Below, piece by piece: positions 24,061 through 37,129 of a stretch of 64,000 nt of DNA (within the stretch, counting starts at the first letter, position 1; each line of letters starts with the position of its first letter). The stretch comes from Candidatus Latescibacterota bacterium (GTDB taxonomy: Bacteria; Latescibacterota; UBA2968; UBA8231). Below the pieces are notes generated by a model. The model was not told the origin of the DNA, ran no database searches, and worked only from the letters and a program-made list of their open reading frames with translations. The stretch spans positions 192,001 to 256,000 of the forward strand of contig OZ220090.1 of the NCBI GenBank assembly GCA_964291625.2, in the 5' to 3' direction. A program made the position numbers and the translations under genes.

Positions 24061-25181
24061 GGATCACCTCCCTGGAGCCGATCCCGGTCCTGGTGCCCCT
24101 GAAGAAGGGGATGACGACGAAGACCGCCCACGGCGAGCACATCGACTCGCCGTACGTGCTGGTGAAGGTCCACACCGACGAGGGCCTCGTCGGGCTGGGG
24201 GAGGCGACTCTGTCGCCGCGGTGGAGCGGCGAGACCAGCCCCGGGTGCGCCGCCGCCGTCTCGCAGGTCCTCGAACCGGCCGTGAAGGGCGCCGACCCCC
24301 GGGACGTGCGCGCCGTCGCGCGGCGGATGGAGCAGGCCCTCAGCCTCAACCCCTTCACCCGGGCGGCGGTGGAGATGGCCTGCTGGGACATCGCCGGCAA
24401 GGCCGCGGGTCTCCCGGTCTACCGCCTGCTGGGCGGCAAGGTGCGGGACTCGGCGCCGATGAAGATGGTGGTGGGCGCCTTCGAGCCGCCGAGGGCCGCC
24501 GCCCTGGCGCAGCGCTTTCTCGACCGGGGGGTGCGTCACCTCAAGGTGAAGGTCGGCCTCGACGCGGCGCAGGACATCGAGCGCGTGCGCGTCGTGCGCG
24601 AGCTGGCCGGGGCGGACGTCTCCATCGGCGTCGACGCCAACTGCGGCTGGGACCTGGGCACGGCGCGCCGGACCCTGGCGGCCCTGGAGGCCTTCGACGT
24701 CACCTTCGCCGAGCAGCCCGTGGGCACCGACGACCCGCGGGCCCTGGCCGCGGTGCGCCGCTCGACGTCGATCCCGGTGATGGCCGACGAGAGCGTCTTC
24801 ACCCCGCGGGATGCGCTCGACCTGGTGCACGCCGACGCCGCCGACATCCTCGCCGTCTATCCCGGCAAGAACGCGGGCCTCCTCGGCTCCCTGGCCGTGG
24901 CCGGGATCGCCGCCGCCGCCGGGCTGGTCTGCAGCATGGGCAGCAACCTCGAGCTGGGGGTGGCCACGGCGGCCATGCTGCACCTGGCCGTGGCCGGTCC
25001 CGCCATCGACAGCGAGCGCTACCCGGGGGACCTGCTCGGCCCCCTGTACCACGACGCCGACATGATCACCGAGCCCCTGGAGCTGGGGCCCGTGGTGGCC
25101 GCGGTGCCGGAGGGCCCCGGCCTCGGGGTGGAGCTCGACGAGGAGCAGGTCGCCCGCTACCGCGACCCCGCCGCAACGTGA
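24057..25181 (+). CDS. Mandelate racemase/muconate cycloisomerase (enolase superfamily)
   Basis: GLGEA, WDIAGK, KVKVG, VDAN, EQP, ADES, GPGLG. Confidence 0.88.
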   Translation: MRITSLEPIPVLVPLKKGMTTKTAHGEHIDSPYVLVKVHTDEGLVGLGEATLSPRWSGETSPGCAAAVSQVLEPAVKGADPRDVRAVARRMEQALSLNPFTRAAVEMACWDIAGKAAGLPVYRLLGGKVRDSAPMKMVVGAFEPPRAAALAQRFLDRGVRHLKVKVGLDAAQDIERVRVVRELAGADVSIGVDANCGWDLGTARRTLAALEAFDVTFAEQPVGTDDPRALAAVRRSTSIPVMADESVFTPRDALDLVHADAADILAVYPGKNAGLLGSLAVAGIAAAAGLVCSMGSNLELGVATAAMLHLAVAGPAIDSERYPGDLLGPLYHDADMITEPLELGPVVAAVPEGPGLGVELDEEQVARYRDPAAT

Positions 25182-26422
25182 GCCGCCTCTACCACACGGA
25201 GGAGGGCCGCGTGATCCCCTCCCTCTGCGAGGAGCTGACGCGGTTCCGGTGGGCCCGAAAGGCCCTCGACCTGCCGGCGACCTCCGCGCCGGCCGAGGTC
25301 TTCGTGCTGGCGCGGGCCTATCCCGGCCACACCGGGCCCCTGCGGCTGGCCGTGAACGGCGGGGAAGCGCTGGCCGTGCAGCCGTCGGGGCCGGGCGTCT
25401 ACCAGTGGTACCGGGTGCAGGTGGAGGCGGGGGCCCTGCGCGAGGGACCCAACCACTTCGAGCTGTGGACCGATACCAGGGCCATGGACGGCTGGTCCCT
25501 GGCCCTGGAGGCCGGTCACCCTTCACCGGGATCGGAGCTCAGCGACGACGGCGGCATCACCTGGCGCCGGGAGCGCATGGGCTACCTGAACGCGGTGCTT
25601 GCCGAGTACGTCGTCCGCGTGCGCCTGGAAGAGGGCGAGGATCCGCCGCCGCCGGCGATGGTCTGGGAGGATCCCGGGTCGCAGCGGGTGCAGTCGCTTC
25701 GCGAGCGCCTGCCCGCGGGGGCGCGGGAGGGGGGCGATACCCTGGCCCGGGCGCGGGTCCTGTCCTCGTGGCTGGCGGCTGGTTGGGAGCACACCAGTTC
25801 CGCCAGGGGTCACCTCTACGGCCCCTGGGACGCCGAGACCGCCCTCTCCTGGGGGCCGGCGCGACAGGGGCACAACGGCCAGCGGCCGATCCTGATGTGC
25901 GTGCACTATGCCGCCAGCCTGGCCAGCGCCTGCCAGAGCGTGGGCATCCCGTCCCGCTGCGCCGCCCTGACCGAGGCGGTGAACGGATCCAACGGCCACT
26001 TCGTCGCCGAGGTCTGGGCCCCCGAGTGGGAGAAGTGGGTCGTCGTCGATCCCAACCTCGACGCCCTCTTCGTCGAGGACGGAGCCCCCATGTCGATGGC
26101 CGAGATCCAGTCCGCGGGCCCGGCCATCGGAACCCGCATCGAATTCGGCGCCGGCACCTCCTTCCAGCGCGCCTTCCCGCACATGATCGAGTTCCTGGAG
26201 CAGAACCTCTCGAGGGGGTTGTGCTTCCGCCACCGCAGTCTCTGGCACCGCGCCGACCTGCTCTCCCGCCCCAGGTTCTCACCCCCCGGACACGGGTCGC
26301 TGAGCTACTGCGAGACCGGCCTGGTATGGGAACGGCGGGACCTGGAGAGGGGCTTCGGCATGTTCCCGAGCTTCGCAGACTCCGGCTGGTTCGACGCTCC
26401 TCCAGCCGGGTTCCCGGACTGA
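25178..26422 (+). CDS. Transglutaminase-like (Cys-His-Asp) domain protein
   Basis: MCVHYA...GIPSR, GHFVAEVW, WVVVDP. GTGA coupling to the upstream gene. Confidence 0.75.
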   Translation: MSRLYHTEEGRVIPSLCEELTRFRWARKALDLPATSAPAEVFVLARAYPGHTGPLRLAVNGGEALAVQPSGPGVYQWYRVQVEAGALREGPNHFELWTDTRAMDGWSLALEAGHPSPGSELSDDGGITWRRERMGYLNAVLAEYVVRVRLEEGEDPPPPAMVWEDPGSQRVQSLRERLPAGAREGGDTLARARVLSSWLAAGWEHTSSARGHLYGPWDAETALSWGPARQGHNGQRPILMCVHYAASLASACQSVGIPSRCAALTEAVNGSNGHFVAEVWAPEWEKWVVVDPNLDALFVEDGAPMSMAEIQSAGPAIGTRIEFGAGTSFQRAFPHMIEFLEQNLSRGLCFRHRSLWHRADLLSRPRFSPPGHGSLSYCETGLVWERRDLERGFGMFPSFADSGWFDAPPAGFPD

Positions 26423-26443
26423 TGGAGCGGGGCCGGACCCGCG

Positions 26444-26472
26444 TTTACAGGGAGAAGGCCCTTTGCTATACT
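26444..26472 (+). promoter_or_regulatory. Sigma70 promoter of lepB and the UBact operon (predicted leaderless mRNA)
   Basis: TTTACA, 17 bp, TATACT with a TGn extension. ATG lies 7 nt after the -10. Confidence 0.65.
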
Positions 26473-26479
26473 CCGAAAC

Positions 26480-27202
26480 ATGCCGAGCATGACCTCTTCG
26501 CGCCCCCGGGGCGGCGGCGCCCGCCAGTACGGATCCTCCATCATCGTCGCCGTCGGTCTCGCCCTGCTCATCCGCAGCTCGGTGGTGCAGGCCTTCTACA
26601 TCCCCTCCGCCTCCATGGAGGACACCCTCCTCAAGGGCGACTACCTGCTGGCCAACAAGTTCATCTACGGCGCCCCCCTCGAGCTGCCGGGCATGGACGG
26701 ACCCCTCTTCCGGCTCCCCGCCCTGCGCGATCCGCAGCCGGGGGACATCGTCATCTTCCGCTCCCTCACCGAGCCGGGGCGCGATCTCATCAAGCGCTGC
26801 GTCGCCGTGGGGGGGCAGGTGGTGGAGATCCGTGACAAGGCGCTCATCGTCGACGGGAAGCCCTCCCGGATGCCGACTCTGGGGAAGTACACGGAGACGG
26901 CCTTCATACCGGGGTCGATGAGCTCGCGAGACAACCTGGGACCCCTGCGCGTCCCCGGCGGCCATTTCTTCATGATGGGAGACAACCGCGACAACAGCAA
27001 GGACAGCCGCATCTTCGGGCCCGTCCCCAAGGAGCGCATCAAGGGGAAGGCGATGATCATCTACTGGTCCTCGACCCTGGTCCACGGCCCCCTGATTCAC
27101 GGCCTGCCGCAGATGGTGCTCGACGCGGGGAACTTCCTCCTGAACCTCCCGACCCTGCCCTTCCGGTCCCGCTACACCCGACTGGGCACGGTCATCCACT
27201 AG
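26480..27202 (+). CDS. lepB: Signal peptidase I
   Basis: TM helix, IPSASM (Ser), LIKRC (Lys), MGDNRDNSKDSR. Confidence 0.93.
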   Translation: MPSMTSSRPRGGGARQYGSSIIVAVGLALLIRSSVVQAFYIPSASMEDTLLKGDYLLANKFIYGAPLELPGMDGPLFRLPALRDPQPGDIVIFRSLTEPGRDLIKRCVAVGGQVVEIRDKALIVDGKPSRMPTLGKYTETAFIPGSMSSRDNLGPLRVPGGHFFMMGDNRDNSKDSRIFGPVPKERIKGKAMIIYWSSTLVHGPLIHGLPQMVLDAGNFLLNLPTLPFRSRYTRLGTVIH

Positions 27203-27214
27203 GAGCCCCTTCCC

Positions 27215-28963
27215 ATCGCCGAGGACGGAGAACGCCCCGGCCGCCGCCCCCGCGGCGACGAGGTCGACCCCTTCGAAGACGAGCGCTTCCGAGGCGGCGA
27301 GCCGGAGGAGGAGCACGACGACGAGCCGCTGCGGCTCGTCGACCAGGTTCTGCTGAGCCTGTCCGAGCGCGACCCGGCGCGGCCGCTGCTCTACCACCTG
27401 CGGCGGCAGCTGATGGAGCGCGAGATCACCTTCCAGGAGGCGCGGCGGACCCTCGTCGAGCTGGAGACGGCGCTGGAGAAGGTCACGGCCCCCGCCAACC
27501 GCGTGGGCATCTTCCTCGGGTCGCCGAAGGAAGGGGTGGCCACCGTCTTCGTCAGCGGTTCCGAGTACTACGCCAACATCGACCCGCGCGTGAATCCCGC
27601 CGATCTCACCGTGGGCGCCCGGGTGCTGATCAACGAGGCCTACGCCATCGTCGGGCTCCTGGGTTCCGCCCCGGCGGGCCCCGTGGCCCGCATATCCGAC
27701 CTGCTGGAGGACGGCCGGCTGCGCCTCGGCAACGAGCACGGCACCACCGACCTGGTCATCGAGCGCTCCGAGGCTCTCGCCGGCGTCGACCTGAAGGTGG
27801 GCGACGAGGTGCGCACCGACCCGTCGATGAAGGTCGCCCTGGAACGGCTGGCCTCGAAGGAGAGCCGCGAGTACTTCCTCGAGGACATCCCGCACGTGCC
27901 GTGGAGCCGCATCGGCGGCCAGGAGGAGGCGATCCGGGCGATCCGGGACACGATCGAGCTGCCCGCCCTGCACCCGGAGCTGTTCGAGAGGTTCGAGTAC
28001 TCCACGCCCAAGGGATTCCTGCTCTACGGCCCCCCGGGGTGCGGCAAGACCCTGATCGGCAAGGCCACCGCCTACAGCCTCGTGCAGCACCTGCGCGAGG
28101 AGGAGGGCCTGCAGGTGGAGGAGTACTTCATGCACATCAAGGGGCCGGAGATCCTCAACATGTGGCTCGGGGAGACCGAGCGCATGGTGCGCGAGGTCTT
28201 CGCCCAGGCCCGGCAGAAGCGCAAGGAGGGCTTCCTGCCCTTCATCTTCATCGACGAGGCCGAGTCGATCCTGGGAACGCGCCGGTCGATGCGCAGCCAC
28301 CACATCGCCAACACCGTGGTCCCCATGTTCTGCACCGAGATGGACGGCATCGAGTCGCTGCAGGAGGTGGTCATCATCCTCGCCTCCAACCGCCACGACC
28401 TGATCGACCCGGCGATCCTGCGCCCGGGGCGGATCGACCGCAAGATCAAGGTCGACCGGCCCGGCCGCGAGGCGGCGGAGGAGATCTTCGGCCTCTACCT
28501 CGGGCCGGGGCTGCCCCTCGACCCGGCCGCGGTGAGCGGGCACGGCAGCGCCGAGGCGGCGCGCCAGGGCCTGATCGCGGCGGCGGCGGCGGCCCTCTTC
28601 GCGCGCACCGAGGAGACCCGGGTCCTGGAGGTGGCGCTGCGCAGCGGCCGCACCGAGAGCCTCCACTTCGGAGACCTGGCCTCGGGGGCTCTCATCGACA
28701 ACATCGTGCAGCGCGCCAAGGAGACGGCGATCAAGCGGGCCATCGCCGCCGAGGACGGGGAGGCCGCCGGCGTGAGCGAGCAGGACCTGCTCGGGGCGGT
28801 GCGCGCCGAGTTCCGCGAGAGCGAGGTCTTCCCGCCCACCGACAGCGTCGAGGACTGGCTCAAGCTCCTCGACTACGACCCCGACAACGTGGTGCGCGTC
28901 AACCCCCGCTCCGCCGCCGCCGACCGCCCCGCCCCCGCGGGCGCCTCCGGAAGCGTCATCTGA
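27215..28963 (+). CDS. arc: Proteasome-associated AAA ATPase (Arc/Mpa); start probably ATC 27215, first ATG 27413
   Basis: Coiled coil, OB domains, GPPGCGKT, IKGPEILNMWLGETER, FIDEAES, RPGRID. The frame is open back to 27203, with AGGAG before the ATC. Confidence 0.9.
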   Translation: MAEDGERPGRRPRGDEVDPFEDERFRGGEPEEEHDDEPLRLVDQVLLSLSERDPARPLLYHLRRQLMEREITFQEARRTLVELETALEKVTAPANRVGIFLGSPKEGVATVFVSGSEYYANIDPRVNPADLTVGARVLINEAYAIVGLLGSAPAGPVARISDLLEDGRLRLGNEHGTTDLVIERSEALAGVDLKVGDEVRTDPSMKVALERLASKESREYFLEDIPHVPWSRIGGQEEAIRAIRDTIELPALHPELFERFEYSTPKGFLLYGPPGCGKTLIGKATAYSLVQHLREEEGLQVEEYFMHIKGPEILNMWLGETERMVREVFAQARQKRKEGFLPFIFIDEAESILGTRRSMRSHHIANTVVPMFCTEMDGIESLQEVVIILASNRHDLIDPAILRPGRIDRKIKVDRPGREAAEEIFGLYLGPGLPLDPAAVSGHGSAEAARQGLIAAAAAALFARTEETRVLEVALRSGRTESLHFGDLASGALIDNIVQRAKETAIKRAIAAEDGEAAGVSEQDLLGAVRAEFRESEVFPPTDSVEDWLKLLDYDPDNVVRVNPRSAAADRPAPAGASGSVI

Positions 28964-28967
28964 ACGG

Positions 28968-30500
28968 ATGTTCGGCCTGGAGACCGAGTACGGGATCCAG
29001 GTCGACGGCGTCGACGATCTCGACGTCGTCGTCGAGTCGATGGAGCTGATCCGCTGCTACCTGCGGGAGGACTTCGTCGCCCGCTGGGACTACGGCCTCG
29101 AGAACCCGCGCCGCGACATGCGCGGCTTCGAGGTCGACGGGCTGCTGAACGACCGCGACGAGACCGAGCACCTGCAGAAGGACCGGGCCCGCAAGATCCC
29201 CCTGAAGGACCTCAAGTCCGACCTCATCCTCGGCAACGGCGCCCGCCTCTACAACGACCACACCCACCCCGAGTACAGCACCGCCGAGTGCCTGACCCTG
29301 GCCGACCTGGTGGCCCAGGACCGCGCCGGCGAGGCCATCCTCCGGCACTGCGCCCGCCGGCGCAGCGCCCTCCGCGGCCGGGGGGTGGTGCGCCTCTACA
29401 AGAACAACACCGACTTCGACGGCCACAGCTACGGCTGCCACGAGAACTACCTGCTGCCCCGGGCGATCCCCTTCGACGACGTCATCGCCGCCCTGCTGCC
29501 CTTCCTGGTGACGCGCCAGATCTACGCCGGCGCCGGCAAGGTCGGGGTGGAGACCGGCTCGCGGACCGACCCCGGCCTCTACCAGCTGGCCCAGAGGTCC
29601 GACTTCTTCGAGGTCATCGCCAGCGTCGACACCATGACCCGCCGGCCCCTGGTCAACACCCGCGACGAGCCCCACGCCGACGCCGACCGCTACCGGCGCC
29701 TGCACATCATCATCGGCGACGCCAACCTCTGCGAGTGGGCCACGGCGCTGAAGGTGGGGGCCCTGCGCCTCGTTCTGGACCTGCTGATGGCCGGGAAGGC
29801 CCCGCGGCTGGTCCTCGCCGACCCGGTGGGTGCCGTGAAGGCGATCAGCCGCGACCCCCGCCGCCGCTGGGAGGTGGAGCTGGAGGACCGCCGCCCGACC
29901 ACGGCGATCGAGATCCAGCGCGCCTACCTCGAGGGCGCCCGGGAGCTGGCCGCCGGCCGCGACGCCGAGACCGACTGGGTCCTGGGGGAGTGGGGGTTCG
30001 CCCTCGACGCCCTCGGGGGCGACCCGGCGCAACTGACCGGCCGCTGCGACTGGGTGACCAAGAAGTGGCTCCTCGACGCCTTCGCCGAGGCCGAGGGGCT
30101 CGACTGGGGCGACCCCGGCCACCGCGCCTGGCTGCAGAGCCAGGATCTGGAGTACCACAACGTCGATCCCGGGGAGGGGCTGTACCTGCTCCTGGAGCGC
30201 TCGGAAGGGGGCCCCGTCTTCCGCTTGAGCGACGCCGCCGCCATCGACCGCGCCCTCGTGGAGCCGCCGGAGCGCACGCGGGCGCGCTTCCGGGGCCGGG
30301 CGGTGGAGAAGTTCGGCGCCGCCGTGCGTTCGCTGAACTGGGACAGCATCGAATTCCAGGTCGACGGGAGGCTCGCCACGGTCGATCTGAAGTGTTGTGT
30401 CGACGCCGATTCGGCGGCTATCTTCAACGACAAGCTCGACCGGGCGGGGTCGGTGGCCGAGTTGCTGGAGGCCCTGTCCGAAGCGGTGCCGGAGCGGTGA
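28968..30500 (+). CDS. dop: Dop-type deamidase/depupylase
   Basis: GLETEYG, Dop loop WDYGLENPRRDMRGF, NGARLYNDHTHPEYST, GCHENY, NTRDEPHAD. Confidence 0.9.
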   Translation: MFGLETEYGIQVDGVDDLDVVVESMELIRCYLREDFVARWDYGLENPRRDMRGFEVDGLLNDRDETEHLQKDRARKIPLKDLKSDLILGNGARLYNDHTHPEYSTAECLTLADLVAQDRAGEAILRHCARRRSALRGRGVVRLYKNNTDFDGHSYGCHENYLLPRAIPFDDVIAALLPFLVTRQIYAGAGKVGVETGSRTDPGLYQLAQRSDFFEVIASVDTMTRRPLVNTRDEPHADADRYRRLHIIIGDANLCEWATALKVGALRLVLDLLMAGKAPRLVLADPVGAVKAISRDPRRRWEVELEDRRPTTAIEIQRAYLEGARELAAGRDAETDWVLGEWGFALDALGGDPAQLTGRCDWVTKKWLLDAFAEAEGLDWGDPGHRAWLQSQDLEYHNVDPGEGLYLLLERSEGGPVFRLSDAAAIDRALVEPPERTRARFRGRAVEKFGAAVRSLNWDSIEFQVDGRLATVDLKCCVDADSAAIFNDKLDRAGSVAELLEALSEAVPER

Positions 30501-30516
30501 GACGAGGGAGCTTCCG

Positions 30517-30708
30517 ATGACCCGAGGATTCGAACTGGGCGAGCGAACCACCCGTCCGAGGCCGATGGACGGCGGCGACGAAGGCGGCGACGACCAGGGA
30601 CCGCGGCGCCCCAAGGTGGAGCGCCCCGACACCGACGACCTGCTGCGCCGCATGCGCCGGGTCGATCCGAACCAGGCGCGCCGATACCGCCAGCGCACGG
30701 GCCAGTAG
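30517..30708 (+). CDS. ubact: Ubiquitin-like modifier UBact (Pup analogue), 63 aa
   Basis: MTRGFELGERTTRPRPMDGGDEGGDDQGPRRPKVERPDTDDLLRRMRRVDPNQARRYRQRTGQ. C-terminal R-T-G-Q. Position between dop and prcB. RBS present. Confidence 0.92.
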   Translation: MTRGFELGERTTRPRPMDGGDEGGDDQGPRRPKVERPDTDDLLRRMRRVDPNQARRYRQRTGQ

Positions 30709-30736
30709 CGCCGGCCGACGGTGCATCCGCGGCGCC

Positions 30737-31528
30737 ATGGAGAGCGCCGACTTCCTCAACATCCTCAAGGAGCGCGGGCAGTTGCCGCCCGCGCCCGACG
30801 TCCCGGCTCCCGCGGCCTCCGCAGCCTCTGCGGCCTCCGCAGGAGAGGTGGCGGAGGGCACGACGATCCTCGCGGTGCGCTGTGCCGAGGGGGTCCTGGT
30901 CGCCGGCGACCGCCGCGCCACGGCGGGCCACACCGTCATCCACGACCGCGCCGACAAGGTGCTCTCCGTGGACGACCGCTCGGTGCTCGCCCTCTCCGGA
31001 TCCCCGGCGAGCGCCTACGAGATCGCCCGCATGCTGGAGATCTCCTTCCAGCACTACCGCCGCACCCAGCTGCAGGAGCTGAGCCTCGACGGACGGTTGC
31101 GCACCCTGTCGCGGCTGCTGCGCGAGAACCTGCCCCTGGCGCTGCAGGGGATCGGCGCCGTGGTCCCCATCTACGCCACCTGCGAGGACGCCGGCTCCGG
31201 CCCCGAGGGCAAGATCTTCTTCTACGACGTCCTCGGCGCCACCTTCGAGTCCGTCGACTTCTGCACCACCGGCTCCGGATCGCCGATCATCCGCGGCGCC
31301 CTCTACTACCTCAACCGCTGGGAGCGGCCCTTCGCCGAGCGCAGCGGCGGCGAGGCCCTGGAGCTGGTGGTGAAGATGCTGGAGACGGCGGCCGAGTACG
31401 ACACCGCCACGGGCGGCTTCAAGGCGACGGCCGCCATCTATCCCCAGGTGATGCGGGTCACCGGCGAGGGCATCTTCACGGTCCCCGAAGGGGAGCTGGC
31501 ACAGGTCTACGCCGGGTTGAGCGGCTGA
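30737..31528 (+). CDS. prcB: 20S proteasome beta subunit
   Basis: Propeptide ending EG|TTILA (Thr1), AGDRRAT, DKV, GSGS. Confidence 0.92.
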   Translation: MESADFLNILKERGQLPPAPDVPAPAASAASAASAGEVAEGTTILAVRCAEGVLVAGDRRATAGHTVIHDRADKVLSVDDRSVLALSGSPASAYEIARMLEISFQHYRRTQLQELSLDGRLRTLSRLLRENLPLALQGIGAVVPIYATCEDAGSGPEGKIFFYDVLGATFESVDFCTTGSGSPIIRGALYYLNRWERPFAERSGGEALELVVKMLETAAEYDTATGGFKATAAIYPQVMRVTGEGIFTVPEGELAQVYAGLSG

Positions 31529-32310
31529 TGCTGGACGAGCCCTACCGCTGGGTCGAGGCGATCCGCAACCGGCGCGAGTACACCGAGGACCAGCTCGCGG
31601 GGGCCAGCCCCGTGGTCGCCCTGGCCTACGACGACGGCCTGCTGCTGCTCACCTCGACGCCGGGGCCGCGCAAGCTCTTCGAGGTCTACAACCAGGTGGG
31701 CTTCGCCGGCATCGGCCATCCCGCCGACATCGAGAAGCTGCGCAAGGCGGTCATCGACATCGCCCACGTGGAGGTCTTCAACCTGTCGGCCAGCGACGTC
31801 TCCCTGCAGCGGCTGGTCAACCTCGGCGTGGGGCCCCTGATGAAGTCCGCCTTCGACGAGATCTTCCGCTCGCCCTACATCGCCCGCGTCCTGGTGGCCG
31901 AGCTCGACCCGCCGGCGGCGGCGGAGACGTTCTACACCATCGATCCCGACGGCTCCTTCAACAGCGCCGCCGAGGCCGCCGCCATCGCCGGCTCCTCCGA
32001 GGCGGCCGAGGCGATCCTGGCGAGGCTGCGCGGCGGCGAGGGCGGCGAGCCCCTCGACCGGGCCCTGGCCCGGGCCCTTCGCGCCTGGGGCGCCGGGCGC
32101 GTCCTGGCCGGCCGCGATCCCGGGGAGCCGGGGGACGGGGAGGAGGGCGAGGCGGAGGTCGGCGAGGAGGAGGTGCGGGAGGCGGTGCGCGCCGCCCTCG
32201 ACGGGGGCCGCTTCGAGGCCGCCGTCCTCGAGCGCAGCCGGCCCACGAAGACCAAGTTCCGACTGCTGAGCCCCGGGGAGCTGGCCTCCTCCCTGGCCGC
32301 CTTCGAGTAG
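31528..32310 (+). CDS. prcA: 20S proteasome alpha subunit
   Basis: MLDEPYRWVEAIRNRREY...SPVVAL...RKLFEVYN..AGIG; EAAVLER. TGATG coupling. Confidence 0.88.
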   Translation: MLDEPYRWVEAIRNRREYTEDQLAGASPVVALAYDDGLLLLTSTPGPRKLFEVYNQVGFAGIGHPADIEKLRKAVIDIAHVEVFNLSASDVSLQRLVNLGVGPLMKSAFDEIFRSPYIARVLVAELDPPAAAETFYTIDPDGSFNSAAEAAAIAGSSEAAEAILARLRGGEGGEPLDRALARALRAWGAGRVLAGRDPGEPGDGEEGEAEVGEEEVREAVRAALDGGRFEAAVLERSRPTKTKFRLLSPGELASSLAAFE

Positions 32311-32315
32311 GTCCC

Positions 32316-33743
32316 GTGCGCAACCGCCTCTACGGCCTGGAGATCGAGTACGGCTGCATGCCGCCCGACTCCGATCCCTTCCTCAGCCCCGACTACATAT
32401 CGGTGAAGACCAAGGACTGCGTCTTCTACCGCGAGGGGCTGGGCATCGTCGACATCCACTACCGCGGGCGCGACGAGCCGCCGGGCAACGGCGGCTTCCT
32501 GTTCAACGGCGGCCGCATCTACATCGACATGGGGCACGTGGAGTACGCCACGCCCGAGTGCCGCGGCCTCTTCGACCTGGTCGCCTCGGACCGCGCCGGC
32601 GAGGTGATCCTGCAGCGCGCCCTCGACCAGCTCGGACTGGCCGACGAGGCGGGGTTCTTCAAGAACAACATCGACCACTACACGGGCGCCACCTTCGGCT
32701 GCCACGAGAACTACCTGGTGCGCCGCGACGTGCCGTTCTCGCAGGTCCTGCTGCCGGCGATCCTGCCGTTCTTCGTGAGCCGGCAGATCTACGCCGGCGC
32801 CGGCCGGGTCGGCTGCCACACCGACATCTTCGAGTACGGAACCGGCGAGGAGGGCGACGTCCCCTACCAGATCTCCCAGCGCGCCGACCACATCGTCACC
32901 GAGATCTACCAGTGGATCCAGTTCAGCCGCGCCATCATCAACACCCGCGACGAGCCGCTGGCCGACTGGGGGCTCTACCGCAGGCTGCACCTGCTTGTGG
33001 GCGACTCCAACATGTCCGAGTACGCCACGGCGCTGAAGGTGGGCACCACGGCCCTCATGCTGGAGCTCCTCGAGGAGCGCATCGTGCCCGAGGTGAAGAT
33101 GCTCGACCCGGTGCAGGCGATCCGCGACATCTCGCGGGACCTGACCTTCAAGTGGGAGGTGCAGCTCGAGGACGGAAGCTACACCACCGCCCTGGAGGTG
33201 CAGCGCCAGTACCTGCGGCTGGCCGAGACCTACCTGCGCGGCAAGGACCCCGAGGGCGACTGGGTCCTCGACGAGTGGCGCCTCGTCCTCGACGCCCTGG
33301 CCTGCGACCCCATGGCCCTGATGGACCGCCTCGACTGGGTGACCAAGAAGTGGCTCCTGGAGACCTTCATGGCGGCGGAGGGCAAGGACTGGGACGACCC
33401 GTGGATCCAGTCGCTGGACCTGGAGTACCACAACCTGAATCCCTCCCGCGGCCTCTACCACGACCTGCGCCAGCGGGGACTGCTGCGCAAGGTGGTCGAC
33501 GACGAGCGCGTGAACCAGGCCATCGTCCGGCCTCCCGAGGACACGCGGGCCCGTGCCCGGTCGAAGGTGATGCGCGCCCTCACCGGCCAGAAGGCGCGCT
33601 ACGTCATCGACTGGGACTCGATCTACGTGGAGGACGAGAAGTATCTCAATCTCGACGATCCCTTCCTCTCGTACGAGGCGGAGACCGACGCCTTCATCAA
33701 GGAATGCGGCCGGGCGCCGGACGTGAGCGGCGCCGGGGCGTGA
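32316..33743 (+). CDS. pafA: PafA-type ligase
   Basis: GLEIEYG, FLFNGGRIYIDMGHVEYATPEC, GCHENY, INTRDEPLAD, DLEYH. No Dop loop. Confidence 0.9.
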   Translation: MRNRLYGLEIEYGCMPPDSDPFLSPDYISVKTKDCVFYREGLGIVDIHYRGRDEPPGNGGFLFNGGRIYIDMGHVEYATPECRGLFDLVASDRAGEVILQRALDQLGLADEAGFFKNNIDHYTGATFGCHENYLVRRDVPFSQVLLPAILPFFVSRQIYAGAGRVGCHTDIFEYGTGEEGDVPYQISQRADHIVTEIYQWIQFSRAIINTRDEPLADWGLYRRLHLLVGDSNMSEYATALKVGTTALMLELLEERIVPEVKMLDPVQAIRDISRDLTFKWEVQLEDGSYTTALEVQRQYLRLAETYLRGKDPEGDWVLDEWRLVLDALACDPMALMDRLDWVTKKWLLETFMAAEGKDWDDPWIQSLDLEYHNLNPSRGLYHDLRQRGLLRKVVDDERVNQAIVRPPEDTRARARSKVMRALTGQKARYVIDWDSIYVEDEKYLNLDDPFLSYEAETDAFIKECGRAPDVSGAGA

Positions 33744-36700
33744 GCGTCCGCGGCCCGGCGGCGGTCTGGCCGGTCCTGCTCGGTCTGCTCGCCGCCCCCG
33801 CCGACGCCTGGCAGGCCGCCGACCCCTCCGCCCGCCCGGCGGGCCCGCCTTCGCCCGAGGCCGCCCGCGGCACCTACAACGCCCTGGTGATATTCGCCAA
33901 GTTCGCCGGCGAGGCCCCCGGGAGCGACCGCAAGCCCTCGTGGGCCGACGACCTCTTCGACGACAGCCGGCCGGGCAGCCTCACCCACTTCTACGACGAG
34001 ATGTCCGGCGGCGAGTTGCGGGTATCCGGGCAGGTCCTGCCGCGGCGCTACGAGTCCCTCGAACCGGCCTCCGCCTACCTGGCCGACAGCTCCGGCACCC
34101 TCGGTGACTTCGGCCGCTTCAACCGGGAGGTCCTGCAGAAGGCCGACGCCGACGTCGACATGGGCGCCTTCGACAACGACGGCCCCGACGGCGTGCCCAA
34201 CTCCGGCGACGACGACGGCTACGTGGACATCCTCTTCATCAACCTGCACACGGCGCCCGAGAACTTCTTCATCACCCGGGCCACGGGCATCGCCAGCCTG
34301 GGGCTGAACACCGAGTTCCTCTCCGACGACGAGGCCGCCGGCGGCGGGGTCATCCGGGTCCGCGACCGGTTCTCCGGGTTCGCCGGCACCACCCAGCGGG
34401 GCCACGTCTTCGGGGTGACGGCCGGGACCATGTGCCACGAGTTCGCCCACCTCCTCGGCCTGCCCGACCTCTTCGACCAGTCCTCGATCTCGGCCACCGG
34501 CGAGCTCGACCCGGCGGAGGAGTCGGCGGGCATCGGCAAGTGGGGCCTCATGGGGCTGGGGATCCTCGGCTGGGGAGAGGGGGACGGCCCCAACGCCTTC
34601 TCCGCCTGGTCCCTGGCGAAGCTGGGCTGGCTCGGGCCGGGCAACGAGCGCCTGGTGGAAGTGACCGAGTCGATGCGGGAGGTGGAGCTGGAGTCGATCG
34701 ACCGCGGCGGCCGCGTGCTCAAGGTGAGCCTGACGCCGGACGAGTACTTCCTCATCGAGAACCGCCAGGCCCACGGATTCTACAACCGCAACATCCCGGG
34801 GGGAGGGCTCCTGGTCTGGCACGTGGACGAGCGCGCCGACAACGACGAGGAGCGGCACAAGCAGGTCGACCTGGTCTGCGCCGACGGGCTCTACGCCGAC
34901 CGCGGCTACCCGGGCGGCGACCCCGACCCGGTCTCGGGGCGCGACAACCTCGACTTCCATTCCCGGGACCCAGCCTACGACGGCGAGCACAACGGCAACG
35001 AGGGCGACGCCACCGACCCCTTCGACGGGGTGAGGTTCCAGCGCCTCGCCTTCGACACCAACCCCGGCCTGCGCGGTCACGCCGGCTCCCGCCGCGGCGT
35101 TCCCCTCGGCTTCGTCCTCGACCGCATAACCCCCCTCGAGAACGGCCGCATGGGCCTGGACGTGCTGTTGCGCCAGCCGGCGGAGGGCCAGGTCACGGGA
35201 TCGGAGAGATGGTCGGGGGAGGTGGCCGTGGAGGGCGACATCGTCGTCGAGGCGGGGGCCTCCCTGACCCTGGCTCCCGGCACGAGAGTGAGCTTCGCCG
35301 CCGCCGACAGCCGCGGCACCGGCTTCGACCCGGGCCGCTGCGAGCTCATCGTCTACGGGGAGCTCGTCGTCGAGGGCGACAGCGCCGCGCCGGTGCGTCT
35401 GACCCACGCGGAGGGCAGCGGCTGGCTGGGGGTGCTGGTCTTCGGCGGCGGCAGCCCGGGGCTGGAGCCCGCGCGGGACGCCGGAGGACTGATTCTGGAA
35501 GGGGCGCGCCTCGGCATCGCGCGGGACCGCCTGCCGCCGGGGACGACCCGGTGGGGAGGGAAGCGGTCCATCCCCTGGGACCTGCTGGTGCCCGCCGGCG
35601 CGGTCCTGGACATCGCCCCCGGATCGGAGACCCGGTTCGCGCCCGGGGACCTGGCCCTTCGCGGCACCCTGCCGGAGCACGTGGAGCTGACCGTCGAGGG
35701 CCGCCTGACGGTGGCCGCCACCGCCGCCGACCCGGCGGTCTTCACCGTCGATTCGATCCTGCCCGAGGAGCTGTGGGCCGGCCTGCGGCTGGCCGCCGGA
35801 GGCGCCGTCGACGCCACCGGCCTTCGCCTCGATCAGGCGATCATCGGGATCGGCGGGGAGATGACGGCGGAGGGGGGGTTCCACCTGGCCGACGCCAGTC
35901 TGGAGCGGCTGGCGCGGGGCGTCGATGTCGGCCTCTTCGGCATGGCGACCATCGACCGCGCCACCTTCCGCTCCATCGCCGACCGGGCCGTCTGGGTTCG
36001 GGGGGCGGGCCACCTGCGGATGCGCAGCAGCGTGGTGGAGGAGAACGGCCGCGAGGGCGTCGTCACCAGCGGCGCCGGCCTCGTGCTGATCGACACGAGA
36101 GTGAGCGGCAACGGAGTCCTCGACAGCGGCGATCCGCGCTCGGGGCTGCTGGCCGAGGGCGGCGTGGGCCGGCGTCTCGAGCTGTGGCGGAGCACGGTGG
36201 AGGGGAACGAGCTCCACGGACTGGAGCTGGACGGCTGGAGAGGGGTGATCGAGCTCCACGGCACCCACATCACCGCCAACCGCCGCGACGGCCTGCGCGT
36301 CGACGGCGCCGAGAGGATGGTCTTCGAGGAGGTGGAGGTCCACCGCAACCGCGGCACCGGCGCCCATCTGGCGTCGACCGCCTCCGAGGTGTGGACCACC
36401 GACTTCGACACCAACCTCGGCGGCGGCCTGCGCGTGGAGGGGGGCACGGTGGCGGTGGAGATGAGCCATTTCACCGCCAACGGGGCCGTCCTCACCGGGA
36501 CCGCCGCCGCCGCGGTCCGCACCAGCGAGTTCGTCAACGCCGCGGTGGGCCTGCACTCCGTCGACTCGGCCCCCGCCATCGTCGGCAACCTCTTCACCGG
36601 CAACGTCACGGCCCTGCGCATCGACGGTCCGGCGGTGCCCGACCCGATCCGGGACAACCACTTCGAAGGCAACAGCCTGGCCTTGGAGAACCGCAGCGAC

Positions 36701-37129
36701 GAGGAGGTCGACGCGCGCGGCAACTACTGGGGCACCAACGATCCGGAGAAGATCGCCGGGCAGCTTTCCGGGGCCGCGCTCTGGACCCCCTTCCTCTCCG
36801 GGGAGCCGCCGGAGACCTCGGTCGCCGAGGGGGCCGGGGAGACGCCCCTGGAGTTCGTCCTGCGCGACCCCTGGCCCAACCCCTTCAACGCGGCCACCGC
36901 CATCGCCTTCGACCTGCCCCGGGCGGCGCCGCTGCGGCTGGCGGTGCACGATGTCCTCGGCCGCCGGGTCCGCACCCTGAGGGACGAGGCCCGGGCCGGG
37001 CCGGGCCGGTTCCGGGTGGTCTGGGACGGCGCCGACGACCGGGGACGGCCGGCGGCCAGCGGCGTCTACCTCGTGCGCCTGACCGCCGGTGCGGACCGGA
37101 CCTCGGGGCGGGTGGTGCTGGTGCGGTAG
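33740..37129 (+). CDS. Secreted M6 (immune inhibitor A-like) zinc metalloprotease with beta-helix and C-terminal FlgD-Ig-like domain
   Basis: Signal peptide, CHEFAHLLGLPDL, EYFLIENRQ, GLLVWHVDE, beta-helix repeats, PNPFN...WDGADDRG..ASGVYLVRL. Confidence 0.85.
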   Translation: MSVRGPAAVWPVLLGLLAAPADAWQAADPSARPAGPPSPEAARGTYNALVIFAKFAGEAPGSDRKPSWADDLFDDSRPGSLTHFYDEMSGGELRVSGQVLPRRYESLEPASAYLADSSGTLGDFGRFNREVLQKADADVDMGAFDNDGPDGVPNSGDDDGYVDILFINLHTAPENFFITRATGIASLGLNTEFLSDDEAAGGGVIRVRDRFSGFAGTTQRGHVFGVTAGTMCHEFAHLLGLPDLFDQSSISATGELDPAEESAGIGKWGLMGLGILGWGEGDGPNAFSAWSLAKLGWLGPGNERLVEVTESMREVELESIDRGGRVLKVSLTPDEYFLIENRQAHGFYNRNIPGGGLLVWHVDERADNDEERHKQVDLVCADGLYADRGYPGGDPDPVSGRDNLDFHSRDPAYDGEHNGNEGDATDPFDGVRFQRLAFDTNPGLRGHAGSRRGVPLGFVLDRITPLENGRMGLDVLLRQPAEGQVTGSERWSGEVAVEGDIVVEAGASLTLAPGTRVSFAAADSRGTGFDPGRCELIVYGELVVEGDSAAPVRLTHAEGSGWLGVLVFGGGSPGLEPARDAGGLILEGARLGIARDRLPPGTTRWGGKRSIPWDLLVPAGAVLDIAPGSETRFAPGDLALRGTLPEHVELTVEGRLTVAATAADPAVFTVDSILPEELWAGLRLAAGGAVDATGLRLDQAIIGIGGEMTAEGGFHLADASLERLARGVDVGLFGMATIDRATFRSIADRAVWVRGAGHLRMRSSVVEENGREGVVTSGAGLVLIDTRVSGNGVLDSGDPRSGLLAEGGVGRRLELWRSTVEGNELHGLELDGWRGVIELHGTHITANRRDGLRVDGAERMVFEEVEVHRNRGTGAHLASTASEVWTTDFDTNLGGGLRVEGGTVAVEMSHFTANGAVLTGTAAAAVRTSEFVNAAVGLHSVDSAPAIVGNLFTGNVTALRIDGPAVPDPIRDNHFEGNSLALENRSDEEVDARGNYWGTNDPEKIAGQLSGAALWTPFLSGEPPETSVAEGAGETPLEFVLRDPWPNPFNAATAIAFDLPRAAPLRLAVHDVLGRRVRTLRDEARAGPGRFRVVWDGADDRGRPAASGVYLVRLTAGADRTSGRVVLVR

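Follow-up and report, generated by a model that had tools for sequence, protein, structure and literature searches.

A complete but ordinary UBact-proteasome operon in a Candidatus Latescibacterota genome

The DNA analyzed here is a stretch of 64,000 nucleotides from a Candidatus Latescibacterota bacterium (NCBI GenBank assembly GCA_964291625.2, contig OZ220090.1, positions 192,001 to 256,000 of the forward strand). This whole stretch is referred to as the window, and all positions below are counted in it. The window harbours a proteasome locus that includes a gene for the small modifier UBact. Six genes, all on the + strand and in the order arc-dop-ubact-prcB-prcA-pafA, are packed into positions 27215-33743, and the intergenic gaps within this operon are, in order, 4, 16, 28, -1 and 5 nt. 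The G+C content is 72 % throughout the window and the locus shows no compositional break. A sequence-only reading of this DNA had claimed a complete six-gene operon with intact motifs in a diderm bacterium. Profile matches and translations agree with it on completeness: all six genes are present on the + strand at the coordinates given below, and the catalytic motifs of all six products are intact. The word intact does not extend to the start of arc, where position 27215 is ATC and no ATG, GTG or TTG follows until 27413. The locus is a complete but ordinary member of an already known system and does not represent a new kind of system.

The ubact gene (30517..30708, +) encodes a protein of 63 aa ending in RYRQRTGQ. 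Its last codon, CAG, is followed by the stop codon TAG, and a GAGGGAG sequence lies 6 nt 5' of its ATG. Within the proteasome locus ubact is flanked by the Dop-type gene and prcB. The C-terminus RYRQRTGQ, which the earlier reading had distinguished from the GG[EQ] of Pup, is read directly from the open reading frame (ORF). The product scores above the cut-offs of both curated UBact models, with 79.9 bits for NF033388 (cut-off 35) and 78.6 bits for PF20513 (cut-off 27.8). No match was obtained with the Pfam model of Pup (PF05639), even at E ≤ 10, and no Pup match was found in NCBIfam at E ≤ 0.01. Since both UBact models were cleared, Pfam Pup was unmatched and the same gene order was seen in 32 of the 80 related loci fetched, the modifier was confirmed to be UBact-type rather than Pup-type. 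The name UBact was reportedly given in 2017, by Lehmann, Udasin, Livneh and Ciechanover, to modifiers of Gram-negative bacteria and candidate phyla with the C-terminus R-[ST]-G-[EQ]. The window modifier, ending in RTGQ, fits this pattern.

Homology searches retrieved 230 UBact homologues at E ≤ 0.001. The C-termini of the 120 best homologues are RTGE (62), RTGQ (57) and RSGE (1), the terminal residue always being Glu (63) or Gln (57), and the motif RYRQRTG[EQ] is nearly invariant among them. In an alignment of 31 sequences, 21 of the 63 residues of the window UBact fall in invariant columns. It could be argued that the small ORF encodes a protein that is not conjugated at all, such as a small, basic regulatory protein or a proteasome assembly factor, with a Gly-Gln end that arose by chance. 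The C-terminal half of UBact is indeed unusually basic and conserved far beyond what would be expected of a mere tag. In addition, a literature search on UBact and non-actinobacterial PafA and Dop found no experimental study, in agreement with the earlier remark that UBact is poorly characterised, and no demonstrated conjugation. UBact was not used in any title or abstract of the searchable literature, where the same letters often denote other things. However, a terminal residue that is always Glu or Gln matches the needs of PafA/Dop chemistry, ubact always adjoins Dop-/PafA-family or proteasome genes, and the catalytic motifs are kept in both ligase-family paralogues. A role other than that of a conjugated tag is considered extremely unlikely.

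Two paralogues of the Pup-ligase family lie on either side of ubact, prcB and prcA. They were assigned on the basis of hidden Markov model scores, PDB alignments and the residue positions published as discriminating Dop from PafA (Hecht et al., PMC7947786 Table 1). The upstream gene, dop (28968..30500, +), encodes a Dop-type deamidase/de-conjugase of 510 aa with a Dop-loop insertion (Pfam Pup_ligase 499 bits). Its best-scoring model is TIGR03688 (Dop) with 426 bits, a lead of 81 bits over the 345 of the PafA model. The solved Dop of Acidothermus cellulolyticus aligns to the product end to end, including the Dop-loop, with 388.6 bits, compared to 238.9 bits for PafA. Residues S27, I84, H95, S101, T102, F208, E210 and V211 are Dop-type in the table of Hecht et al., and no insertion follows the catalytic Asp, as in Dop. 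Three positions are PafA-type (A81S, P103A and G214S), and the remaining tabulated positions are of neither type.

The downstream gene, pafA (32316..33743, +), starts with GTG and encodes a PafA-type ligase of 475 aa without the Dop-loop (Pfam Pup_ligase 462 bits). Its score with TIGR03686 is 369 bits, only 10 above that with the Dop model. Residues F54, G66, A72, T73, H188, S200 and D439 are PafA-type, the segment at 165-180 has the length found in PafA, and the C-terminal DPF tail aligns to PafA alone. No counterpart of S67 is present. A divergent alpha-helix segment, VTEIYQWIQF, was observed at window positions 32850-32890 (about residues 179-192 of PafA). The two paralogue types are also separated clade-wide. 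The spacing between the motifs GhExE and NGxRxYxD is 80-88 residues in the Dop-type proteins (37 clade members) and 57 in the PafA-type proteins (26 members). The catalytic Asp is followed by H-T-H in all matched Dop-type proteins (D-H-T-H, 19/19) and by M-G-H in all PafA-type ones (D-M-G-H, 22/22), while the residue before the WD motif is Asn in the former (34/34) and Asp in the latter (29/29). Judged by these sequence features, the upstream paralogue is best assigned as Dop-type and the downstream paralogue as PafA-type. A dop gene adjoins ubact both in loci with a tag ending in Gln (21 of the 32 six-gene loci) and in those with a tag ending in Glu (11 of the 32), and Dop is therefore kept either way. 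Actinobacteria with a Glu-ending Pup are described as likewise keeping Dop, which is also the de-conjugase (PMC3511204).

The 20S core is encoded by prcB and prcA. The beta subunit gene prcB (30737..31528, +) was identified by matches with TIGR03690 (156.7 bits) and PF00227 (85.6 bits). PrcB has a 41-residue propeptide with the cleavage site G41|T42, so that Thr1 corresponds to residue 42, and Asp17 and Lys33 are present. Mature beta chains in the PDB begin at the position of PrcB residue 42, and PDB beta subunits were matched with an E value of 1.6e-28. The gene for the alpha subunit, prcA (31528..32310, +; 260 aa; TIGR03691 71.8 bits), overlaps prcB, its ATG at 31528 sharing a nucleotide with the prcB stop (TGATG). 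PrcA is divergent. Its best solved relatives are the alpha subunits of Rhodococcus and M. tuberculosis (E 1.9e-11), and it carries an acidic insertion near its C-terminus.

The first gene of the operon, arc (27215..28963, +; 582 aa when counted from ATC 27215), encodes a proteasomal AAA ATPase of the Mpa/ARC type. Its product scores 460.6 bits with TIGR03689 and 334-336 bits with solved Mpa. Pfam matches cover the AAA domain and the two OB domains typical of proteasomal ATPases (OB_N and OB_C), and the protein has the architecture of a coil, a double OB and an AAA domain. Walker A (GPPGCGKT), Walker B (IFIDEAE) and the pore loop (MWLG) are read from the translation.

The arc frame is open from 27203, and no ATG, GTG or TTG is found across the 62 codons preceding the LYxLRR anchor of the protein. 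All 34 related loci with this anchor (34/34) have a canonical start at least 41 codons 5' of it. These observations would fit a rival explanation in which tagging works but the ARC of this sub-clade is crippled or down-tuned. It would then be either a 516-aa product starting at ATG 27413, which would lose the conserved N-terminal element and one third of the coil, or a protein made by very weak initiation at the ATC. With an ARC crippled or weakly initiated in this way, degradation of tagged proteins would therefore be reduced or conditional. Initiation at AUC in E. coli was reported to reach about 1-2 % of that at AUG, with 0.02-3 % across constructs (bioRxiv 10.1101/063800), which adds to the case for a poorly produced ARC.

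Comparison with the nearest relatives speaks against such a loss. ATC is shared by five genomes of the same genus (G000, which is the genome of the window, G002, G004, G006 and G007), and ATG is found in five others (G001, G003, G005, G008 and G009). ATC 27215 aligns to the ATG of the relatives (IAED versus MAQD/MAQN). Coding constraint is evident across 27215-27412 in the five ATC genomes: variable columns are distributed over codon positions 1/2/3 as 6/2/20, and the sole indel inside this region is 3 nt long and in frame. A Shine-Dalgarno-like motif, AGGAG (27201..27205, +), lies 9 nt ahead of ATC 27215 and is kept in 6/6 aligned same-genus sequences, at 9-10 nt 5' of the ATC. The internal ATG at 27413 is replaced by CTG in one of the five ATC genomes. 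Termination of the upstream gene lepB, with its TAG stop 12 nt ahead of ATC 27215, may help re-initiation at arc. The element encoded between ATC 27215 and ATG 27413 (EPLRLVDQVLLSLSERDPARPLLYHLRRQL) is conserved in all relatives. Taken together, a crippled or down-tuned ARC is considered unlikely, and arc is most likely translated from the conserved AUC codon, as far as sequence comparison can tell. An automated annotation of arc would probably place its start at ATG 27413, with the loss of 66 conserved residues.

Other explanations for the arc start were rejected. A sequencing error at the ATC was ruled out, the identical codon being present in five species-level genomes. The CTG at codon 39 is a less likely start, since variation in the stretch from the ATC to this CTG already concentrates at third codon positions (2/2/11). 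Furthermore, the closest purine-rich stretch ahead of this CTG is 15 nt away. A read-through LepB-ARC fusion, conceivable because the two genes share a frame with only the TAG and four codons between them, was also rejected. A 1-nt indel occurs just 5' of the ATC in relatives, as well as in a contig of an RNA library labelled sponge metagenome (X1). This insertion of 1 nt in the spacer, found in four same-genus genomes and in the RNA-library contig, led to rejection of the fusion; the topology of LepB would also make it implausible.

Part of the region ahead of ATG 27413 forms a conserved, clade-specific ARC N-terminal element (EPLRLVDQ...RDPARP, 27323-27412), which precedes a coil seemingly shorter than that of Mpa. 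The TIGR03689 score is 460.6 bits with or without this element, and the actinobacterial model thus misses it.

At its other end the window ARC terminates in GSVI (28955-28963) and not in QYL. The last two ARC residues in 35 related loci are VI (27), IV (3), II (3), SV (1) and TV (1), and ARCs of Verrucomicrobia end in VI in 5/5 cases. None of the 41 ARC tails examined, comprising those of the window, the 35 related loci and the five Verrucomicrobia, ends in YL. In mycobacteria, Mpa and Bpa carry QYL at the C-terminus and use it to open the gate of the 20S core (PMC5515868, Figure 5 legend). The missing Tyr-containing tail gave rise to a second rival explanation, in which UBact and ARC are uncoupled from the usual docking of an activator tail in a 20S pocket. 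ARC would then serve mainly as an unfoldase or as a helper in de-tagging, while the 20S core would be fed otherwise. The absence of a YL end from all 36 ARC tails of the lineage (0/36), the VI end of the Verrucomicrobia ARCs and the gate opening by QYL in mycobacteria favour this idea. Nevertheless, arc shares an operon with prcB and prcA in 32 of the 80 loci, and the last two residues are strongly conserved after a variable linker, resembling a docking tail. As for other activators that could take over, PAC2 was the only one looked for, and it was absent. Uncoupling of ARC from the 20S core is considered very unlikely.

The -VI tail and the predicted N-terminal helix with its shortened coil raise the possibility that UBact proteasomes dock and recognise their tag in a way unlike the Pup system. 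It could tentatively be proposed that in UBact-linked ARCs, found under several phylum labels, Val-Ile has replaced the QYL/HbYX motif and an N-terminal helix has been gained, with different docking and tag chemistry. In the sub-clade of the window the AUC start, coupled to termination of lepB, would throttle the unfoldase. This proposal in its entirety is regarded as possible though rather doubtful.

The six genes together point with high probability to a functional UBact-proteasome system, the counterpart in Gram-negative bacteria and candidate phyla of the actinobacterial Pup-proteasome, encoded in one compact operon that is possibly co-transcribed with lepB. All biochemical steps proposed for it are modelled on the Pup pathway as it is described in PMC3511204 and PMC5515868; the sequence fits each of these steps and contradicts none. 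UBact would be made as a 63-residue, probably disordered protein with a Gln end. The Dop-type enzyme would convert Gln63 to Glu by deamidation. The earlier reading had likewise proposed that the terminal Gln needs deamidation by Dop before ligation by PafA, and this proposal fits the sequence and the analogy with mycobacterial Pup (PMC3511204). The PafA-type ligase would then activate the side-chain carboxylate of this Glu with ATP and couple it to the side chains of lysines in target proteins. Recognition of the tag is predicted to occur via the N-terminal coil of the ARC hexamer, which would unfold the substrate and thread it into the PrcA/PrcB 20S core, the beta subunit of which would mature at G41|T42. 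Dop would also take the tag off.

The RNA libraries provide additional data on this locus. A share of 52 % of the sampled words was found in X1, and contigs from this library cover 29 of 30 operon bins. One X1 contig corresponds to positions 30009-30713, comprising the end of dop and the entire ubact gene, with 2 differences. Three further RNA runs (X2-X4) gave small shares and mostly chimeric contigs, and are uninformative on this organism.

Several observations weigh against a functional UBact-proteasome system. Contigs from an RNA library may represent carried-over DNA, and they show neither strand nor level of expression. Five of the products remain below the NCBIfam equivalog cut-offs, namely ARC (460.6 versus 504.75), Dop (426 versus 492.3), PafA (369 versus 551.3), PrcB (156.7 versus 191.9) and PrcA (71.8 versus 139.05). 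The pafA product is nearly equally similar to solved Dop (283 bits) and solved PafA (265 bits), its alpha-helix segment is PafA-type at 2 of the 9 tabulated alpha-loop positions (PMC7947786), and it lacks two threonines that are conserved in both actinobacterial enzymes. Added to these are the arc gene without a canonical start before 27413 and an ARC lacking QYL, the tail used for gate opening of the mycobacterial 20S core. In the searchable literature, deamidation, conjugation or degradation has not been demonstrated for any UBact system.

The operon is preceded by a lepB-like gene for signal peptidase I (26480..27202, +; PF10502 161 bits). In 21 of the 32 six-gene loci such a gene directly precedes arc. 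The lepB gene may be co-transcribed with the operon, or the link may reflect inherited synteny only. A promoter-like site (TTTACA-17-TATACT, with TG; 26444..26472, +) lies ahead of lepB. It is a consensus match only, and the sole promoter-like site of the region, where the scan found 1 site versus 0.5 expected from shuffles. Transcription of the unit may begin here. The terminator scan returned 2 sites, both intragenic, versus 2.0 expected, and in an Rfam scan of 26000-34600 no family reached its gathering score. Further upstream of lepB, a protein with a transglutaminase-like core domain is encoded at 25181-26419 (PF01841, 33 bits). Downstream of the operon, a gene with a GTG start that overlaps the pafA stop (GTGA) encodes a large M6-like metallopeptidase (33740..37129, +). 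This secreted protein contains beta-helix repeats and, at its C-terminus, a FlgD Ig-like domain. Among the 32 six-gene loci, 14 have a homologue of this peptidase 3' of pafA, and it probably stands outside the UBact system.

The host genome, G000, has a size of 5.9 Mb in 2 contigs and is 95 % complete. UBact is encoded once in this genome, and the Pup-ligase and proteasome families are each represented by two genes; all five lie in the operon. The description of the host as diderm is reasonable, because a BamA match in the same genome exceeds its cut-off (478.6 versus 297 bits). LpxC was not matched by either of two models in this 95 % complete genome. HslV was undetected in G000, the only two PF00227 matches being the two operon genes, and a homologue of the PAC2 proteasome chaperone was not found in G000 either.

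The rarity implied by the sequence-only reading did not stand: the family has curated models, NCBI annotates it in this lineage, and it is nearly universal in the class. Within the phylum, 128 of 168 genomes are matched by the UBact model; broken down over the class's four families, the matched genomes number 69/75, 31/31, 3/3 and 22/22. The name 'ubiquitin-like protein UBact' is used by NCBI for proteins with 66-73 % identity in metagenome-assembled genomes of Latescibacterota and Gemmatimonadota. With one genome per species, about 960 stretches were estimated to match the UBact peptide patterns, and among the matches listed 544 of 600 stretches encode a relative. The exact order arc-dop-ubact-prcB-prcA-pafA, seen in 32 of the 80 loci, occurs under the labels Latescibacterota, Gemmatimonadetes, Planctomycetota and Poribacteria, or simply 'bacterium'. 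In 37 of the 80 loci ubact-prcB-prcA is found alone, mostly under the labels Verrucomicrobia or Chthoniobacterales. The remaining 11 loci are truncated at contig ends or show an odd order resulting from ORF calling. Five Verrucomicrobia genomes have Pup-ligase-family genes elsewhere in the genome, with two intact genes in four of the five. In the fifth, G168, both Pup-ligase-family genes are split into two adjacent pieces, which may reflect frameshifts or assembly errors. A few genomes of the window's own phylum have two UBact matches, which are adjacent on one contig in G022 (C69:7143-7576) but lie on separate contigs in G093 and in G122; these may be duplicated tags.

The compact operon, from a genome of 72 % G+C with sequence also present in RNA libraries labelled sponge metagenome, could be used to reconstitute the system or to look in metaproteomes for the predicted remnant of Lys + 287.11 Da, calculated for Thr-Gly-Glu left after trypsin. 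The ATC start of arc and the -VI tail of ARC instead of QYL are leads for specialists in bacterial proteasomes.

Tags of this general kind were described early on. Iyer, Burroughs and Aravind (2008; PMC2588565) reported small tags resembling Pup, with G[EQ] at the C-terminus, from Nitrospirae, Verrucomicrobia and Planctomycetes, and noted that these non-actinobacterial tags adjoin two PafA paralogues and mostly three proteasome genes. The present modifier differs in that the tags are treated there as Pup, and the phylum of the window is not among the lineages named in the relevant text of that paper. Compared to the actinobacterial Pup system (M. tuberculosis mpa, dop, pup, prcB, prcA and pafA), the window has the same families for all five enzymes and subunits, and its tag gene is embedded in the same gene order. 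From its sequence it would also share the C-terminal Gln/Glu chemistry, the Dop-loop, the maturation of the beta subunit at Thr1 and the coil/OB/AAA organisation of the ATPase. It differs in a tag that is unmatched by Pfam Pup and ends in RTGQ, not GGQ, and in an ARC ending in -VI, not QYL. Further differences are the extra N-terminal element of ARC, the divergent alpha-helix segment of PafA, the PAC2 homologue not found, and scores below equivalog cut-offs that were trained on actinobacteria. With the UBact loci defined by NF033388/PF20513 the window shares a modifier of about 60 aa, the R-T-G-[EQ] end, the six-gene order and a diderm host. No essential difference from these loci was found, the local features of the window being the ATC start of arc, found in a sub-clade of five species, and the flanking genes for LepB and the M6-like peptidase.

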